64,000 nucleotides of DNA from Chloroflexota bacterium (GCA_003141455.1 PLMA01000067.1:17340-81339), one strand, 5' to 3'; shown: positions 32,553 to 57,386, counted from the first letter of the stretch. Numbers and translations: made by a program. The notes: generated from the sequence alone by a model not told the origin.

Positions 32553-32629
32553 CGGGGCGTGGCGCAGCCTGGTAGCGCACCTGAATGGGGTTCAGGAGGC
32601 CGAGCGTTCGAATCGCTCCGCCCCGACCA
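32553..32629 (+). tRNA. tRNA-Pro (anticodon GGG)
   Basis: Cloverleaf read by hand. Acceptor CGGGGCG/CGCCCCG. D-arm GCGC…GCGC. Anticodon stem CCTGA/TCAGG with loop ATGGGGT. T-arm GAGCG-TTCGAAT-CGCTC, discriminator A and encoded CCA. Confidence 0.8.
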
Positions 32630-39916: not shown

Positions 39917-39992
39917 GCCCCCGTAGCTCAGTGGACAGAGCGCCGCCGTCCTAAGGCGGGCGTCGTCGGTTCGAGTCCGGCCGGGGGCGCCA
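39917..39992 (+). tRNA. tRNA-Arg (anticodon CCT)
   Basis: Acceptor GCCCCCG/CGGGGGC. D-arm GCTC…GAGC. Anticodon stem CCGCC/GGCGG with loop GTCCTAA. T-arm GTCGG-TTCGAGT-CCGGC, discriminator G and encoded CCA. Confidence 0.8.
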
Positions 39993-40515: not shown

Positions 40516-41181
40516 ATGCGGTTTCGAACGCTGACCGTCAGTGTCGTGATCTTCGCCGTTGCCATGGCGTACGTTGAGTCGGCGTCCGTCGTGTATCTGC
40601 AGCGCGCACTTTCGATCTCGCCGGACCGGCTCTTTCCTCTACGCGGGCCGGACGTCGTGGGCAGCCTGGCGGCCATCGAGGTGGGCCGCGAGCTGGCGAC
40701 GCTCGTGATGCTCGTGTCGATCGGATGCCTGGCAGGGAGGAGCTGGGTAGATCGACTGGCCTGGACCGCGGTCGCGTTCGGCGTCTGGGACATCTCCTAC
40801 TACGGCTGGTTGTGGGTCTTCATTGGCTGGCCCCATTCCCCGGGAACATGGGACGTGCTGTTCCTCATCCCTGTCCCGTGGGCCGGGCCCGTCTGGGCGC
40901 CGGCGGTCGTAAGCCTGGCACTGGTCGGCTTCGGACTGGCTGCCGCTTACTCGAATCACGTCGGGCGCCCCGCGAGAGTTGGCGTCGGCCGCATCGCGGT
41001 TGCTCTTGCCGGAGGTCTGCTCGTCGTCCTGAGCTTCACGCTGGACGCCCCGGCTCTCATGGACGGTCACACACCGGGGTGGTATCCGTGGCCGGTGTTC
41101 GTGGCCGGGATGACCCTCGCCGGCTGGGCCGCCTGGACGGCGCTTCGTGCAGTCGAGCCCGAAGGGCGCGAGGGTACCTAG
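40516..41181 (+). CDS. hypothetical polytopic membrane protein (221 aa, Trp-rich)
   Basis: Six or more hydrophobic helices (VSVVIFAVAMAYV…, LATLVMLVSIGCLAG, AFGVWDISYYGWLWVFIGW…); family unknown. Confidence 0.5.
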   Translation: MRFRTLTVSVVIFAVAMAYVESASVVYLQRALSISPDRLFPLRGPDVVGSLAAIEVGRELATLVMLVSIGCLAGRSWVDRLAWTAVAFGVWDISYYGWLWVFIGWPHSPGTWDVLFLIPVPWAGPVWAPAVVSLALVGFGLAAAYSNHVGRPARVGVGRIAVALAGGLLVVLSFTLDAPALMDGHTPGWYPWPVFVAGMTLAGWAAWTALRAVEPEGREGT

Positions 41182-41213: not shown

Positions 41214-41714
41214 CTACTCCTGACAGCCCTGGCAGCGACCGGCAATCGTCACGTGTGTCAGGTCCACGGAAAACCCCAGGTCGGCCGCCAGAGCATCCAC
41301 GATCAAGGCTCCGGTCTCCGGCCTGATCTCCCACGTGGCGCCGCAGCCAACGCAGTGGAGATGGCCGTGAACGTGTTCAGGGAGAACGTGGTACTCCTCG
41401 CGGCCGTCCGCGGCGTGTCCATGCCTGACCAGACCGAGGTTCTCCAGAACGTCGAGCGTCCGATACACGGTTGAGGGAGTGGTGGTTCTATCCAGCTCCC
41501 GACAGCGAGCGATCAGATCGGTCGCGGTGACGTGGCCCTCGTGCTCGCGCAGAACCTCGACGAGGGTCCGCCGCTGGGGAGTCCAGCGCAGCCCGCTGGC
41601 GCGCAGCCGATCGGCGACGCCGTCCCATGGGCTTGCGACGGAGCCTCGCGCAGGATTTGGTGAGTCGGGCTGTGGCAGCGTGCGGTCCTCGTTGCTCGCT
41701 CGATTGTGGCGCAT
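41214..41714 (-). CDS. Fur-family metalloregulator (Nur/Zur/Fur type)
   Basis: On the minus strand: LRWTPQRRTLVEVL DNA-binding helix, HGH…H…HCVGCG…CQGCQ metal sites. Transcribed divergently from the nikMN/cbiMN operon. Confidence 0.85.
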   Translation of the reverse strand: MRHNRASNEDRTLPQPDSPNPARGSVASPWDGVADRLRASGLRWTPQRRTLVEVLREHEGHVTATDLIARCRELDRTTTPSTVYRTLDVLENLGLVRHGHAADGREEYHVLPEHVHGHLHCVGCGATWEIRPETGALIVDALAADLGFSVDLTHVTIAGRCQGCQE

Positions 41715-41799
41715 TGCCGATGCGCCTTAGAATAGGGTCGTAGCGCAACGCGTTGCAATAGCCACGAGTCTCGACAGGCGCAACGGAGGAAGCGGACCA

Positions 41800-43083
41800 G
41801 TGCACATCCCCGATGGCTATCTGGCGCCCGCAGTCTCGATTGCCCTCGCCGTGCCTACGATCCCCATGTGGGCCATCGCCACACAGAGAGTCAAGAAGGT
41901 ACTGAACAACCGGACCGTGCCGCTCCTGGCCATCTTCTCCGCCTTGAGCTTCACGATCATGATGTTCAACATCCCCGTCCCGGGCGGCACGACGGCTCAC
42001 GGAGTAGGGGGGACGCTGATCGCGGTCGTTCTGGGCCCATGGGCCGCGGCCATCGCTGTGAGCACGGCGCTGATACTCCAGGCTCTCTTCTTTGGCGACG
42101 GTGGTGTCCTGGCGATCTTCGCCAACTGCCTGAATATGGGAATCATCTTGCCCTTCGTGGGCTACGTCACCTACAGATTGCTCGCGGCCGGATCACCCGT
42201 GCTATCGACCCGCCGGGCTGTCGCCGCCGGGATCGGCGCTTACGTCGGGATCACCACCGCTGCTCTCGCTGTCGGCATCGAGCTTGGCATCGAACCGGCG
42301 CTCTTCTCGCAGAACGGTCACGCTCTCTACAGCCCGTACGGTCTCTCCGAGGCGATACCGGCGATGCTGGCGGCTCACGTCTTCGGCGCCTCGATCGTCG
42401 AGGGTCTGATCACGGGGCTGGGAGTCTCCTACCTCCAGCGCCGCCATCCGGAGTACCTGACGAGCCTGCGCGGCATCTTCGCCCCGGACGCGGCCACTGA
42501 AGGGACCGCGGCGCGTCGCCCGCTGTGGCAGGTCGTGACGGCCGCGGCAGCCGTCGCCGCGGCCCTGCTTGCGATCGTGGGTCTGGTGGAGGGTGGGGGC
42601 AATCCGAATCGGATGTTCGGCGCCGATTGGTCTCGGGTCGACTGGCCGTCCGTTGCGACGATGCTCCTCGTGACCGCCGTCATCGGCATTGTGCTCGTCC
42701 CGGCGGCATACCTCGTGTTGCCCCGCGGTCTGAAACGAATCGGCGCGGCCTTCACGGCGATTGCGGTGATAGCGCCGATCGGGCTCATCGCCCCAGGCTT
42801 CGCGTATGGGGAGGGGAGCACGGGGAACGTGAAGGCGGCGTTCGGTTATGTCCCGTCGGGGCTGCAGGATCTGTCAGGCATCTTCGGCGCGCCTCTGTCG
42901 GGCTACAACTTGCCCCTGCCGTTCTTCTCACACGCCAGCGCGCCGCTCTGGCATGCGGCGGTCGGCTATGAGATATCCGGCATCCTCGGCGTGCTGCTCG
43001 TGGGCGGAGCGGTCTACGTCCTGGCCCGCGCCCTGCGACGAAACGGATCTGCTGACACGGCCCCGGAGGGAGTCGGAGCATGA
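41800..43083 (+). CDS. cbiM: ECF-transporter substrate component CbiM/NikM fused to a NikN/PDGLE-like C-terminal module
   Basis: Hallmark N-terminus MHIPDGYL (GTG start) and the CbiM/NikM helices. The protein is 427 aa, with an extra C-terminal membrane module containing …AFGYVPSGLQD… (PDGLE-like). Confidence 0.82.
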   Translation: MHIPDGYLAPAVSIALAVPTIPMWAIATQRVKKVLNNRTVPLLAIFSALSFTIMMFNIPVPGGTTAHGVGGTLIAVVLGPWAAAIAVSTALILQALFFGDGGVLAIFANCLNMGIILPFVGYVTYRLLAAGSPVLSTRRAVAAGIGAYVGITTAALAVGIELGIEPALFSQNGHALYSPYGLSEAIPAMLAAHVFGASIVEGLITGLGVSYLQRRHPEYLTSLRGIFAPDAATEGTAARRPLWQVVTAAAAVAAALLAIVGLVEGGGNPNRMFGADWSRVDWPSVATMLLVTAVIGIVLVPAAYLVLPRGLKRIGAAFTAIAVIAPIGLIAPGFAYGEGSTGNVKAAFGYVPSGLQDLSGIFGAPLSGYNLPLPFFSHASAPLWHAAVGYEISGILGVLLVGGAVYVLARALRRNGSADTAPEGVGA

Positions 43084-43105
43084 CCGGGCGCAAGAGGGAC
43101 AGGTC

Positions 43106-43981
43106 ATGACCACGGCCGCGCCCGCCGTCGGTAGGGGCCGGCGTCTCGAAGGGCGGATCGGCTGGCTCGAGCAGACGCTGGGCGGCATCACCGGCAACAT
43201 CGAGCAAGCGATCTTCACCGAGCACCACGCCAGATCCGCCGGCTGGCTGCAGCGGCGCGACCCGCGGGCGAAGATGATCGGCCTGCTGGTGGCGATCCTG
43301 GCGGCCAGCTTGACCACCTCGCTTGCCGGTCTGGCGATCCTCTATGCGGGCACTCTGGGCGCGGCGCGGGCCAGCCGGGTTCCGTTCGGCTTCTTCGTGA
43401 AGCGCGTCTGGCTCGGCATCCCGTTCTTCGCCGGAATCGTGGTGCTGCCGGCCATCTTCTTCGTCCCCGGCCCGCGGGTCTTCGATCTGGCCCTCGGACC
43501 GGCCCATCTGGCGCCTTCGTGGAACGGACTGGCAGGAGCGTTCATCTTCGTCAGCCGTGTCGGCGTCTCGGTCTCGCTGGCCGTGCTCCTGGTGGTGACC
43601 ACGCCCTGGGCCGACGTCCTCAAGAGCCTGCGGGCGCTCAAGGTGCCGCAGGTCTTCGTGCTCGTGTTGTCGATGACCTACCGCTACATCTTCCTCTTCC
43701 TGCACACGGCCAACGGGATCCTCCTGGCGCGCAAGAGCCGCGTCGTGGGCCGGACGAGCGGTGGGGAGCAGCGGCGCTGGATAACCGGCACCATGGGCAA
43801 CCTGATGAGCCGGGCATTCAAGATGAGCAATGACGTTTACGCCGCGATGCTCTCGCGTGGCTTCGCGGGCGAGATCCGGAGCTACGCCACGTACCGGCTC
43901 CGCGCCTCGGACGTGGCGGCGCTGGGGGGAGTGGCCGTCGTCGCCGCGGCCGCGGTGCTGGTCGGGCGGCTGCTGCCATGA
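43106..43981 (+). CDS. cbiQ: ECF-transporter T component CbiQ
   Basis: RDPRAKMIGLLVAILAA… CbiQ family N-terminus and 5–6 TM helices. ATG at 43106 inferred; the track ORF from 42848 overlaps cbiM out of context. Confidence 0.8.
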   Translation: MTTAAPAVGRGRRLEGRIGWLEQTLGGITGNIEQAIFTEHHARSAGWLQRRDPRAKMIGLLVAILAASLTTSLAGLAILYAGTLGAARASRVPFGFFVKRVWLGIPFFAGIVVLPAIFFVPGPRVFDLALGPAHLAPSWNGLAGAFIFVSRVGVSVSLAVLLVVTTPWADVLKSLRALKVPQVFVLVLSMTYRYIFLFLHTANGILLARKSRVVGRTSGGEQRRWITGTMGNLMSRAFKMSNDVYAAMLSRGFAGEIRSYATYRLRASDVAALGGVAVVAAAAVLVGRLLP

Positions 43982-44844
43982 CCGCCGGACTCCAACCTGC
44001 TGTCGCCGCGGGCCCGGTTGGGCCGGGCGAGCCACTCTACGACCTGCGCGGCGTCCGGTATGTCTACGCCGGTCGGCAGGTGGCGCTCGATGGCATCGAC
44101 CTCCAGATATGGCCCGGAGAGAGAGTCGTCCTGCTCGGGGCGAACGGCAGTGGGAAGTCGACGTTGCTCAAGCTGCTGGACGGGGTCGTGGGCCCAACCG
44201 GCGGAACCATGCGGGCTCTCGGTCGAGACGTGGCCGCCGTCGCCCAGGGCGAGGATGGCTTCCGCTTCCATCGCGAAGTGGGCCTCGTGTTCCAGGACCC
44301 GGACATCCAGCTGTTCAGCGCAACTGTGCTTGACGACGTGGCTTTCGGCCCGCTCCAGCTCGGCTTGAGCCAGGAAGAGGTCAAGCAGCGCTGCGAGGAA
44401 GCCCTGGCCGCGATGGAGATCGCGCATCTCGCCGATCGAGCCCCGTTCGAGCTGTCCGGGGGCGAGAAGAAGCGGGCGTCGATCGCGTCGGTGCTATCGC
44501 TGCGTCCGGATGTACTCCTCCTGGACGAGCCCACGGCCTCGCTGGATCCGCGGACCAAGTGGCTTCTGGTGGACTTGATCCAGCGTTTGTCGGCGTCCGG
44601 GCGGACCCTTGTCGTCGCCACGCACGAGCTCGACATCGTGCCGATCATCGCGGACAGAGTCGTGGTCCTCGGAGAGGATCGACGAATCATCGCCGACGGA
44701 CCTCCAGCAACGGTACTGGCCGATACGGCTCTGCTCGTGCGGGCGAACCTCATCCACGAGCATCTCCACGGCCACGGGGCAGTGGCCCACTCGCACCCGC
44801 ACGAGGCGGACGACACGCATCACGGCGCAGATCGCGAGGCGTAA
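43978..44844 (+). CDS. cbiO: ECF-transporter ATPase CbiO with His-rich C-terminal tail
   Basis: Walker A GANGSGKSTLLKLL, signature LSGGEKKRASIA, Walker B LLLDEPTASLD. C-tail HEHLHGHGAVAHSHPHEADDTHHG. Overlaps the cbiQ stop. Confidence 0.88.
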   Translation: MTAGLQPAVAAGPVGPGEPLYDLRGVRYVYAGRQVALDGIDLQIWPGERVVLLGANGSGKSTLLKLLDGVVGPTGGTMRALGRDVAAVAQGEDGFRFHREVGLVFQDPDIQLFSATVLDDVAFGPLQLGLSQEEVKQRCEEALAAMEIAHLADRAPFELSGGEKKRASIASVLSLRPDVLLLDEPTASLDPRTKWLLVDLIQRLSASGRTLVVATHELDIVPIIADRVVVLGEDRRIIADGPPATVLADTALLVRANLIHEHLHGHGAVAHSHPHEADDTHHGADREA

Positions 44845-44985: not shown

Positions 44986-47676
44986 ATGGAGAGCCCCCAC
45001 TCCGGGCACGATTCCCGTCGATCTGAGCACGGACGGGCGCACCAAGGCGAAGCCAACCGTGCGGCCGAAGCTCTGTCTCTCAGCCGCGACTTGCTCGACG
45101 GCGAGGCCGAAATGGCCGCGCGCCAGCGCGTCTTCGACCAGGTTCTGGCCTCGGTGGAGCTCGTCCTGGCCACCGACGGAGCGGCATTCTGGCGCGAGGA
45201 GGCCGACCACTCGCTCGTTCTGACGGCGAGCCGGTTCGTCTCGGAGGGCGTACTCGAGGTGCTGGATCGCCACGCGACCATGCCCCTCCAGTCGATCATG
45301 CAGCGCTGGCCGGAGACCCCGCTCGTCGCGGTGCCGCTCGACGATCTGGCCAACCCGATAACCGAGGAGATTCGGTCCGTCACGGAAGCCGAGGAGATCG
45401 TCGGGCTGGCGGGCGTCCCGTGCCGCATCCCCGGTGAGATGCTCGGGATGCTGATCGTGATCCATCGCAGGCCCCACTCCTGGACGGCCCGCGACATTGG
45501 CCTGGCCACCGGCCTGGCCGGCCAGCTGGCCTTGGCATTGCAGAACGCACGCCTCTACGCCTCCGTGAGATCGCTGGCCAATCGGTTGACGGCGATCCAC
45601 GAACTGAGCTTGAGGTTGACTCAGCTCCGGGACGTCGACGCCATCGGCCGAGCGATCGTGGCCGAGGTAGGTCTCCTGGTCGACTGCGACACGGTCCGTG
45701 TCTATCGACTCGATTCCCAGGGCCAATTCTTCAGGCCCGTGGCCGCGTCGGGGACCTTCGCCGGCATCGAGTCGCCGCCGCTCGAAACCCTGATGGCCGG
45801 TCAGACCGAGACACTGCCGGGCTGGGTCGCGAAGCGCAACGAGCCGTTGATCATCCCCGACGCTTCCGTGGAACGGCGCTCCATATTTCGCTCGAGCCCA
45901 GGTCCTGAATCGTTGCTGCTTGTGCCGATGTCTTACGGCGATACCGTCCAGGGGGTCCTGGTCGTTTCCAAGCAGGGCGTCGGCAAGTACGGCTCCGACG
46001 ACGAACGCGCCCTCTCGATCTTCGGGCGGTACGCGGCGCAGGCGATGGTCAACGCCGACAACATCGAGCAGCTGGAACATCAGCACGCCTTGCTCGAGCG
46101 CCAACTTGCCGCCCAGCGAAGACTCCTCGACCTCAGCGAGAAGTTGGTCTCGACCTTGGATCCGCGCAGAGTCCTGGAGCAGATTGCGGACACGATCGGG
46201 ATGGTCGTCCGCTACGACCGTCTGACGATCTACCGCCTTGAGAGTCAGGCCGGCGGGATCGAACCGGTCCTGTCCCGGGCGAAGTCGGGCGAAATCGCCG
46301 ATCCAACGCCGGACCGCGCCTTCTTCGACGAAGGACTCACGAGTTGGGTCATTGGGCGCGGCGACGCCGTCTGCGCCAACGATGTGGGCCAGGGCGCCCT
46401 GGCCGTCGGGCTCGACAACGCGGTTCGGGCCGGGCCGGCCTCTGAGGAATCTGTTCTGGCGGCCGGCCGCCGAGCCGACCAGGACGAGCGGATCACGCAG
46501 AACATGATCGTGGTCCCGCTAAGGGTCCACGGCAACGTGGTCGGCAGCCTGAACCTGACGCGGGTCGGCCGTCAGGAGGCCCACTTCAGCGAGCACGAGT
46601 TCGAGCTCTGCAAGCTGTTCGCCGGCCAGGCGTCGATCGCCCTGCAGAACGCCGAGGCCCACGTCACCATGGCCACCCGAGCCGACCTGGACGCTCTGAC
46701 CGGACTGCGGAACCACGGCACGTTCCAGCGCGACCTCACGTCGGTAATCCAAGCGGGCAAGCCGTTCTCCTTACTGATGATGGATCTTGACTCGTTCAAG
46801 GCCTTCAACGACGCCTATGGCCATCCCGCCGGAGACACGCTGCTGGCGGCGGTGGCAAAAGCGATCGTCAGTGCCATTCGCCAGAACGACAGTGCGTATC
46901 GTTACGGCGGCGACGAGTTCGCTCTGCTCCTCATCGGGGCATCCAGCGACCACGTCGAGGAGGTGGCGGCCCGTGTCCGCGTGGCCGTTCGCGAAGGCGT
47001 CATGGCCTCGCCAGTCGGCGGCATGGGGCTCGACGTCGGCGTATCCATTGGGGCCGCCCACTGGCCGGCCGATGGGCCGGGGAACACCGCACTCGTGGAG
47101 GCGGCCGACGCGGCCCTGTACAGAGCGAAGCGGCTTCGGAGCGACCCGTTCGCAGCCGGGGCCGCGGCCGCGGAGCCCGCTCGTTCGGCCCGCTCCGCGT
47201 CCGACGCCCTGGTGGAGGCCGCCCATGATCTGGCTGGGGCAGCGACACCCAGCGAGGTAGCCCAGATGACTGCCCGCCACGCGGCCACGTTCTGCGGGGC
47301 TACCGACGCGTTCGTGGCCTACCTGCAGCCCGAGCCGGCCGCGGCCGTGCCAAGTCCGGCCTCTCGGCGGCCTTCAGCCGAGACATCGAAGCCACGGCTG
47401 CGGATTCTGGCCGCATCCGGACGATTCAAACGGCGCGCCCCCACACTCCGCTCCGACGGCGGCTTCTGGCGGCGCGTTCTCGACGCGGGCTCGCTCCAGG
47501 AGGACGCAGGCCCAGAGGTCTGTCTTGTCGGAGCGCCGCTGTGCGTCGTTGGCAGCGTCGCGGGATTAGTCGGCCTCGTCGTTCCGGCGGCGGCGTCCGC
47601 AAGTTGCAGGACAGCCTTGGGTCAGCTGACGGCAGTCGCGTCGGCGGCCCTGGAGCGCGCGAGCCGGCCCGCGTAG
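44986..47676 (+). CDS. multi-GAF sensor diguanylate cyclase (GGDEF)
   Basis: Several GAF-like segments followed by GGDEF (RADLDALTGLRNHGTFQ…MMDLDSFKAFNDAYGHPAGD…YRYGGDEFALLL) and a further C-terminal region of about 180 aa. Confidence 0.85.
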   Translation: MESPHSGHDSRRSEHGRAHQGEANRAAEALSLSRDLLDGEAEMAARQRVFDQVLASVELVLATDGAAFWREEADHSLVLTASRFVSEGVLEVLDRHATMPLQSIMQRWPETPLVAVPLDDLANPITEEIRSVTEAEEIVGLAGVPCRIPGEMLGMLIVIHRRPHSWTARDIGLATGLAGQLALALQNARLYASVRSLANRLTAIHELSLRLTQLRDVDAIGRAIVAEVGLLVDCDTVRVYRLDSQGQFFRPVAASGTFAGIESPPLETLMAGQTETLPGWVAKRNEPLIIPDASVERRSIFRSSPGPESLLLVPMSYGDTVQGVLVVSKQGVGKYGSDDERALSIFGRYAAQAMVNADNIEQLEHQHALLERQLAAQRRLLDLSEKLVSTLDPRRVLEQIADTIGMVVRYDRLTIYRLESQAGGIEPVLSRAKSGEIADPTPDRAFFDEGLTSWVIGRGDAVCANDVGQGALAVGLDNAVRAGPASEESVLAAGRRADQDERITQNMIVVPLRVHGNVVGSLNLTRVGRQEAHFSEHEFELCKLFAGQASIALQNAEAHVTMATRADLDALTGLRNHGTFQRDLTSVIQAGKPFSLLMMDLDSFKAFNDAYGHPAGDTLLAAVAKAIVSAIRQNDSAYRYGGDEFALLLIGASSDHVEEVAARVRVAVREGVMASPVGGMGLDVGVSIGAAHWPADGPGNTALVEAADAALYRAKRLRSDPFAAGAAAAEPARSARSASDALVEAAHDLAGAATPSEVAQMTARHAATFCGATDAFVAYLQPEPAAAVPSPASRRPSAETSKPRLRILAASGRFKRRAPTLRSDGGFWRRVLDAGSLQEDAGPEVCLVGAPLCVVGSVAGLVGLVVPAAASASCRTALGQLTAVASAALERASRPA

Positions 47677-57309: not shown

Positions 57310-57386
57310 GGGCGGTTAGCTCAGTTGGTTAGAGCGCATGCTTGACATGCATGAGGTCAGAGGTTCAAGTCCTCTACCGCCCACCA
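57310..57386 (+). tRNA. tRNA-Val (anticodon GAC)
   Basis: Acceptor GGGCGGT/ACCGCCC. D-arm GCTC-AGTTGGTTA-GAGC. Anticodon stem CATGC/GCATG with loop TTGACAT. T-arm AGAGG-TTCAAGT-CCTCT, discriminator A and encoded CCA. Confidence 0.8.

Follow-up and report, generated by a model that had tools for sequence, protein, structure and literature searches.

A Nur-like regulator and its predicted operator beside a Nik(MN)QO-type importer in Candidatus Limnocylindria

Divergent regulator and importer genes

We analysed a 64,000-nt stretch of Chloroflexota DNA (GCA_003141455.1, PLMA01000067.1:17340-81339; hereafter the window, with positions counted from its first letter) around a Fur-family, Nur-like metalloregulator gene and the adjoining genes of an energy-coupling factor (ECF) importer. 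The regulator gene (41214-41714, minus strand) encodes 166 residues, of which residues 40-150 match PF01475 (E=5.3e-22), and an 85-bp intergenic region (41715-41799) separates it from the importer genes nik(MN), cbiQ and cbiO on the plus strand. An earlier reading of this DNA (hereafter the original prediction) had described the same divergent arrangement across an 85-bp gap, and the coordinates match the sequence and the list of open reading frames (ORFs). The window, with a G+C content of 68%, belongs to a metagenome genome of Candidatus Limnocylindria (Chloroflexota). Homologues of its regulator at 60-96% identity all belong to Candidatus Limnocylindrales/Limnocylindria or to otherwise unclassified Chloroflexota metagenome-assembled genomes, and an identical regulator protein is also present on JGI metagenome contigs.

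The first importer gene, nik(MN) (41800-43083, plus strand; PF01891, E=9e-55), starts with GTG and encodes a 427-residue protein composed of a NikM S-component, two extra transmembrane (TM) helices and a PDGLE/NikN-like module. It is followed by cbiQ/nikQ (43106-43981, plus strand), encoding the 291-residue ECF T-component (TIGR02454, 152 bits against a cutoff of 111.8; PF02361, E=1e-30), and by cbiO/nikO (43978-44844, plus strand), encoding the 288-residue ECF ATPase (PF00005 (ABC_tran), E=1e-31; TIGR01166, 203.8 bits, just under the cutoff of 211.8).

Nik(MN) begins with MHIPDGYL and carries a histidine at position 67 (GTTAH67G), and both M1-H2 and H67 are common to all 39 orthologues examined. 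In TtNikM2 the nickel ligands are the Met1 amine, His2 and His67, and Co(II) too fits the metal site of NikM/CbiM (PMC3945884). Two contigs with an identical locus have public gene calls that start NikMN at M23, giving a 405-residue protein (compare 41800-41866 in the window); these calls are wrong, because only the GTG at 41800 yields M1-H2 and places the conserved histidine at position 67. Within the C-terminal 190 residues, the hydrophobic stretches found by inspection predict the two extra TM helices, after which comes a TM-loop-TM module. The original prediction had called the protein a fusion of CbiM to a PDGLE-like module. The window protein itself matches PDGLE over the full profile at a level that is sub-threshold for Pfam (E=0.03-0.036), and PDGLE also matches 22 of the 25 orthologues (best E=4.9e-5); CbiN matches neither the window protein nor any of the 25 orthologues. 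These profile matches and ligand positions support an ECF system of Nik(MN)QO type whose PDGLE/NikN-like module is divergent. Nickel rather than cobalt as the transported metal is suggested indirectly, by the Nur-like regulator, the NikN-like module and the absence of a B12 riboswitch.

Nik(MN) fusions occur naturally in R. capsulatus (PMC3945884), and the window system resembles R. capsulatus Nik(MN)QO and TtNikM2 in its probable NikM/N fusion, its MHIPDG N-terminus, its His67 ligand and the position of the Q and O genes next in the operon. Unlike these systems, the window protein is 427 residues long, with the two added predicted TM helices placed between NikM and the divergent PDGLE module, the ATPase has a conserved His-rich tail, and a Nik(MN)-Q fusion occurs in nine relatives. 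In these nine genomes (L005, L006, L007, L018, L042, L053, L054, L066 and L068) Nik(MN) runs in frame into CbiQ to give one Nik(MNQ) polypeptide, with nikMN ORFs of 712-752 residues and a low-complexity linker before CbiQ; at the corresponding place in the window (43081-43106), nik(MN) and cbiQ are split by a stop codon and 22 nt.

The His-rich C-terminal tail of CbiO is present as the original prediction had quoted it: the protein ends in ...IHEHLHGHGAVAHSHPHEADDTHHGADREA, and the tail proper extends from H260 to H282 (HEHLHGHGAVAHSHPHEADDTHH; 44755-44823, plus strand). The motif NL[IV]HEHxHxH-x(3-4)-H[SA]HxH-x(3-5)-HH is kept in about 47 CbiO orthologues. Comparison of CbiO with 1.84 billion representatives returned mostly tandem-ATPase fusions, together with just two informative relatives, cluster representatives at 55% identity; both have the motif, and one continues for another ~170 residues at its C-terminus. 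In Anaerolineae operons the tail is absent or vestigial, with NLAHYHSH at most. The fixed spacing and lineage-wide conservation argue for a putative specific metal-binding element on the cytoplasmic ATPase, and one may speculate that it senses nickel, leading to trans-inhibition, or passes the metal on. His-rich nickel-handling tails are familiar from UreE, HypB, SlyD and similar proteins, with which the CbiO tail shares alternating cytoplasmic histidines at a protein terminus in a nickel pathway; unlike in those proteins, the tail here sits on the ABC ATPase of an importer and has the fixed motif NLIHEHxHxH...HSHPH. A search of the literature on His-rich CbiO/NikO tails found no relevant report.

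A conserved operator between the divergent genes

The intergenic region contains the predicted operator TAGCGCAA-CGCG-TTGCAATA(GC) (41741-41762), an 8-4-8 inverted repeat with a 6-4-6 Nur-like core, of which the 20-bp repeat proper, TAGCGCAA-N4-TTGCAATA, occupies 41741-41760. Embedded in it are the perfect 12-bp palindrome GCAACGCGTTGC (41745-41756), which the original prediction had singled out, and a TTGCAA at 41753-41758. The window as a whole holds 46 perfect 12-bp palindromes, and GCAA-N4-TTGCAA with at most one mismatch is expected 0.94 times per window; the simple GCAA-N4-TTGCAA pattern is no rarer in 64 kb than chance would make it. Between 41700 and 41800 (101 bp) there are three inverted repeats with 6-bp arms versus 0.22 expected (p about 0.01), an excess that is mildly unusual. 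The significance of the operator comes from its conservation across genomes, not from the palindrome itself.

That conservation was followed in 80 loci, which were collected by a scan of genome collections with the family alignment and whose gene neighbours were identified by tblastn with four window proteins and by inspection of ORFs and Pfam matches. The pattern nGC[AG]A-N4-TnGCA has exactly one match per intergenic region in 45 of 45 divergent loci scanned. Column counts over these 45 sites, the window's own included, give the consensus T-A-n-(C/T)-G-C-A-A-N4-T-T-G-C-A-(A/G)-(T/C)-A-G-C, in which columns outside the search pattern are conserved as well (T in 34 and A in 32 of 45 sites, and A in 45 of 45 at mirror positions). 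These outer columns follow the two-fold symmetry of the site. The conserved unit is TAnnGCAA-N4-TTGCnnTA, with TATTGCAA as the ideal half-site. The central four bases vary freely among orthologues, including the CGCG of the window. The 12-bp palindrome thus survives as the core of a conserved site, whereas the 'perfect' and 'GC-rich' character that the original prediction attached to it does not.

A position weight matrix (PWM) built from the 45 sites, the window itself among them, recognises a single site in the 64-kb window, at 41741-41762 with 36.6 bits. Among the 80 related loci, 72 have a single PWM site each, compared with 0.33 matches per 775 kb in shuffled-sequence controls, and 27 of the 72 sites lie outside the training set. 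In 63 cases the site precedes the regulator ORF by no more than 350 bp, and in the other nine it is upstream of transporter genes that precede a same-strand regulator. The comparison supports the palindrome region as a genuine conserved operator whose half-sites are of the TTGCAA type.

The Nur box, tTGCaa-N5-ttGCAA, is a 17-bp element of 6-5-6 architecture with footprints at sodF, sodF2, nikA and nikM, while Fur, Zur and PerR boxes are 7-1-7 with a single central base (PMC2691836). The resemblance of the TTGCAA half-site to the Nur box, noted in the original prediction, is borne out, the half-sites matching nnGCAA/TTGCAA. Set against the Nur, Zur and Fur boxes as a whole, the site agrees with Nur in its half-sites and departs from all of them in its spacing, which is 6-4-6 rather than 6-5-6 or 7-1-7: the spacer is 4 bp in all 45 training sites and in the further PWM sites, and no 6-5-6 register fits. 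An et al. attribute the multi-base, unconserved spacer of the Nur box to an S1-S2 sheet tethered by the nickel site (PMC2691836). The operator architecture is Nur-like in its multi-base variable spacer, with half-sites 1 bp closer together.

The promoter of nik(MN)QO was placed with an alignment of 35 orthologous intergenic regions, in which five blocks are conserved: GATTGTGGCGCAT, GTAGACT, the operator, a block in the 5′ untranslated region (5′-UTR) and a GGAGG Shine-Dalgarno sequence. From this conservation we infer a -10-like hexamer, TAGAAT, at 41728-41733 on the plus strand (TAGACT in most orthologues, with T, A and final T invariant in the 35 regions), and a -35-like TTGTGG 18 nt upstream of it, at 41704-41709 on the same strand; the latter lies over regulator codons 2-4, within the block GATTGTGGCGCAT that spans codons 1-4. 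The Shine-Dalgarno sequence GGAGG (41785-41789, plus strand) precedes the GTG start by 10 nt and is GGAGG-like in most orthologues. The operator begins 7 bp after the -10 hexamer and should therefore extend over roughly positions +1 to +20 of the nik(MN)QO transcript. In a distant clade (L042, L043, L066 and others) the operator instead lies upstream, its right half TTGCAG ending up 17 nt before TAGACT at the -35 position. Both geometries predict repression. No promoter of the regulator's own was located.

Between operator and Shine-Dalgarno sequence, the conserved 5′-UTR block GTCTCGACAGGCGCAAC (41768-41784, plus strand; consensus GTnnCGnCAGGYGnnAC, with invariant or near-invariant columns) forms an imperfect inverted repeat. 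A hairpin can be drawn for it and was rejected, its covariation being no better than in shuffled alignments. Riboswitch control was rejected on the Rfam search, which returned three tRNA genes (32553-32626, 39917-39989 and 57310-57383) as the sole matches in the whole window.

The regulator and its relatives

Closeness of the regulator to Nur was judged by searches of the PDB. With the single sequence as query, the best solved-structure match is 3EYY, Nur of S. coelicolor, at 82.3 bits compared with 58.6 for the next, a Fur entry; a family profile of 26 sequences gives 100.6 bits for 3EYY and at most 75.5 for any other Fur-family structure. Nur is thus ahead of the other solved relatives by 24-25 bits in both searches, and none of the NCBIfam equivalogs for Fur, Zur, PerR and Irr comes near its cutoff for the window regulator.

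In the alignment with Nur, the nickel-site ligands H70, H72 and H126 correspond to H98, H100 and H154 of the window protein, the ligands of the M-site, H33, H86, H88 and H90, to H61, H114, H116 and H118, and the Nur residues H81 and E101 to H109 and E129. Across the 26 family members H61, H98, H100, H109, H116 and H118 are invariant, and H154 and E129 are at least 90% conserved; the sole variable ligand is the equivalent of Nur H86, which is Q, H or E across the family. Each of the substitutions H70A, H72A and H126A abolishes DNA binding by Nur, whereas H86A is tolerated, and the H70/H72/H126 triad is reported as conserved in Nur orthologues only (An et al. 2009, PMC2691836). The bit scores support a regulator that resembles Nur rather than iron-Fur, PerR, Zur, Mur or Irr, and with the kept histidine triad they run against the outcome that the original prediction had named as refuting it, a regulator clustering with iron-Fur or PerR rather than with Nur/Zur.

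Compared with Nur (SCO4180), the window regulator retains the Fur-family fold, the triad and M-site histidines and the identical YR of the recognition helix (STVYRTL), and it shares with Nur the TTGCAA-type half-sites with a multi-base spacer and the tie to a nikM-type ECF nickel importer. It differs in belonging to the Chloroflexota (Limnocylindria) and not the Actinomycetota, in an identity of only about 35%, in an N-terminal extension of ~30 residues, in the lack of conservation of Nur D37 and in an operator of 6-4-6 (extended 8-4-8) instead of 6-5-6. Measured against Nur, the regulator therefore agrees in ligand set and, as far as function and metal are read from genomic association, in function as well, and it lacks the 6-5-6 Nur box.

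The genomic association is as follows. At 46 of the 80 loci nik(MN)-Q-O stands beside the regulator in the divergent arrangement of the window, and at two more nik(MN)QO lies upstream on the same strand as the regulator. Six loci have another CbiM, of 35% identity, along with Q and O, again divergent; two have a canonical NiCoT permease (PF03824, about 339 bits) beside the regulator; and about 11 have a 340-residue NiCoT-like permease with the sequence RHGxDWDHIAAITD, either divergent or upstream in the same orientation. The regulator family is consistently linked to Ni/Co importers of several unrelated classes. The NiCoT-like permease (for example L040 3961-4986, L046 3922-4965 and L067 3879-4907), of ~340 residues with the motif RHG(F/I)DWDHIAAITDITST and His-rich loops, matches NiCoT by its TM2 signature alone (PF03824, 23 bits, below cutoff), and it is probably a distinct Ni/Co permease family.

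At two loci the nik operon has been lost, and the gene opposite the regulator is now of the GAF-GGDEF type in L017 and of the SBP_bac_5 type in L024. In both the operator is intact (L017 4899-4920 and L024 4900-4921, 33 and 32 bits, respectively), while the -10 box has decayed to TGGACT and TGGCTC. The motif tracks the regulator, not any particular transporter, and its retention where the nik operon is gone argues that the operator also serves the regulator's own expression.

Beyond these loci, a metagenome-collection scan was made for exact matches to the idealised, AT-rich operator TATTGCAA-N4-TTGCAATA, which is not the window's own sequence. It returned at least 120 stretches (L085-L204), most of them probably fortuitous occurrences in AT-rich contigs. 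We used the 23 of the 120 listed stretches that have an adjoining Fur-family gene, 29-60% identical to the query and within about 60 bp of the motif, and no others. The usual order among these 23 is operator, regulator, cbiM/nikM (MHIPDG...), Q and O, with the operator at, for example, L141 7205-7224, L123 4427-4446 and L196 129-148. One such regulator type was traced to homologues annotated as Anaerolineae/Anaerolineales, and for two representatives of these regulators Nur is again the best solved relative, at 79 and 119 bits. The Anaerolineae-type regulators do not have the H70/H72 pair, carrying HPSH or NQTD in place of HxH. The operator type would accordingly belong to a broad Nur-related family in the Chloroflexota, of which the full nickel-site triad appears, on the alignments, to be a trait of the Limnocylindria branch, as it is of Streptomyces Nur.

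Predicted nickel control and its alternatives

We propose that a Nur-type nickel-responsive repressor controls the adjoining Nik(MN)QO importer by way of one conserved operator, a reading to which we give a probability of roughly 0.75; the choice of nickel over cobalt is made with somewhat lower confidence than the mechanism. In this scheme, the Fur-family protein would be a dimeric metal sensor homologous to S. coelicolor Nur. When cytoplasmic Ni(II) is sufficient, the metal would fill the H98/H100/H154 triad together with the common site formed by H61, H114, H116 and H118, and the loaded repressor would bind the inverted repeat at 41741-41760. Its occupancy of about +1 to +20 would block transcription of nik(MN)-cbiQ-cbiO, and at low nickel the repressor would be released and the importer made. 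The position of the operator just downstream of the TAnnnT -10 box implies such repression of nik(MN)QO at sufficient nickel. The operator also lies 26 bp upstream of the regulator ATG, so that expression of the regulator would probably be modulated too, and autoregulation through the single conserved operator is plausible. In S. coelicolor, binding of Nur to the nikM promoter depends on nickel (PMC2691836), and it is on this model that we infer the holo-repressor logic.

Several observations weigh against this proposal. The choice of effector metal and the sense of the regulation are both carried over from Nur, whose nickel site was possibly influenced by crystallisation conditions according to a later review (PMC7055735). 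The N4 spacer means that the DNA-binding geometry cannot be identical to that of Nur. The triad is not needed for operator recognition, because Anaerolineae regulators that lack the H70/H72 pair share the same operator, and it may not define metal specificity. Generic promoter and terminator scans of 41550-41950 found neither element, and the proposed -10 element failed a sigma-70 consensus scan; such a scan misses the candidate promoter because the -35 is weak. The operator is seen only once in the 64-kb window, where the PWM finds no further site above 12 bits. Finally, nickel enzymes are not evident among the neighbours of the locus, in a window annotated only in part.

The alternative with most in its favour keeps the operator logic and changes the metal: a cobalt-specific CbiMNQO importer would feed B12 synthesis under the control of a cobalt-responsive Fur-family repressor. 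The components bear the names CbiM, CbiQ and CbiO and the label 'cobalt' in Pfam and NCBIfam, the NikM/CbiM site also takes Co(II), as described above, the NiCoT permeases that partner this regulator family elsewhere carry Ni or Co, and an earlier assessment of Chloroflexi Cbi/NikMNQO systems called them cobalt-specific or left them unassigned (PMC2667541). However, the Rfam search of the window found no cobalamin riboswitch, B12 genes do not flank the locus, the fused module matches PDGLE/NikN and not CbiN, and the regulator retains the nickel-site triad of the nickel-specific Nur. We therefore regard cobalt control as improbable.

A second alternative concerns the regulator's own expression. 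The original prediction had pointed to an inverted repeat, GCGCAT-N5-ATGCGC (41709-41725), across the regulator start codon (CAT, 41712-41714), and this could be a separate autoregulatory site next to the operator of the importer. The repeat exists where it was placed, in a stretch mildly enriched in inverted repeats, and one orthologue (L038) keeps a 5-bp repeat although both arms have changed, to CCCAT...ATGGG. As an operator, however, it is unconserved. Its left arm is the conserved start-codon region, which the start codon and the -35-like block explain, and its right arm belongs to the variable spacer, where conservation in the intergenic alignment is lowest; the repeat is kept in L001, recurs with a 6-nt spacer in L008 and L036 (the latter with one arm mismatch) and is absent from most other orthologues. 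As it survives in the closest relatives only and bears no resemblance to the family operator, we rejected it, and a two-operator arrangement is very unlikely.

An ordinary Fur, Zur or PerR sensor that sits beside a transporter, with the palindrome a product of chance or bound by some other factor, for example NikR, is strongly disfavoured to the point of being nearly negligible: source annotations do call homologues 'ferric uptake' or 'Fe2+ or Zn2+ uptake' regulators, the top NCBIfam matches are Fur and Zur models (all far under their cutoffs) and 12-bp palindromes are common in the window, but Nur leads among the solved relatives, the 4-bp spacer does not fit the 7-1-7 boxes, the motif follows the regulator whichever Ni/Co importer adjoins and persists after importer loss, and the blind collection scan finds it beside Fur-family genes.

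Control of the importer by a Nur-type repressor, as proposed here, is similar to that in NikR systems (E. coli nikABCDE-nikR; predicted NikR sites at nikMNQO) in that a nickel-loaded repressor encoded beside the importer would stop uptake; it differs in the use of the winged-helix Fur family rather than a ribbon-helix-helix protein, and in the operator. We know of only one organism, S. coelicolor, in which Nur has been characterised, and to our knowledge Nur-type regulation has not previously been described in the Chloroflexota in the literature searched. That a known regulatory system extends to a further phylum is well supported and unsurprising, and current understanding is not overturned by it.

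A broader version, which we offer tentatively and would not expect to hold in full, is that Nur-type sensing may reach beyond the Actinomycetota, that a widespread and undescribed Nur-related family in Limnocylindria and Anaerolineae uses its own TATTGCAA-N4-TTGCAATA operator, and that in Limnocylindria a post-translational layer is added, wherein the CbiO tail binds nickel and either trans-inhibits the importer or hands the metal to chaperones. The Nur nickel site and the 6-5-6 box underlie ideas on how Fur-family proteins evolved their metal and DNA specificities. The present family is large and phylogenetically distant, and the triad is kept in Limnocylindria or partly missing in Anaerolineae with the same 8-4-8 operator; since triad-bearing and triad-deficient members share that operator, they form a natural comparison set for separating residues that govern metal selectivity from those that govern half-site spacing. 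The operator model could be used to annotate nickel regulons in abundant uncultured Chloroflexota of soil and peat, and the His-rich motif conserved on this ECF ATPase is a possible metal-sensing element.

Two further genes adjoin the locus, and both keep their positions in related loci. A 221-residue membrane protein without a Pfam match (40516-41181, plus strand) lies next to the regulator, and an 896-residue multi-GAF-GGDEF protein (44986-47676, plus strand) is encoded directly 3′ of cbiO.

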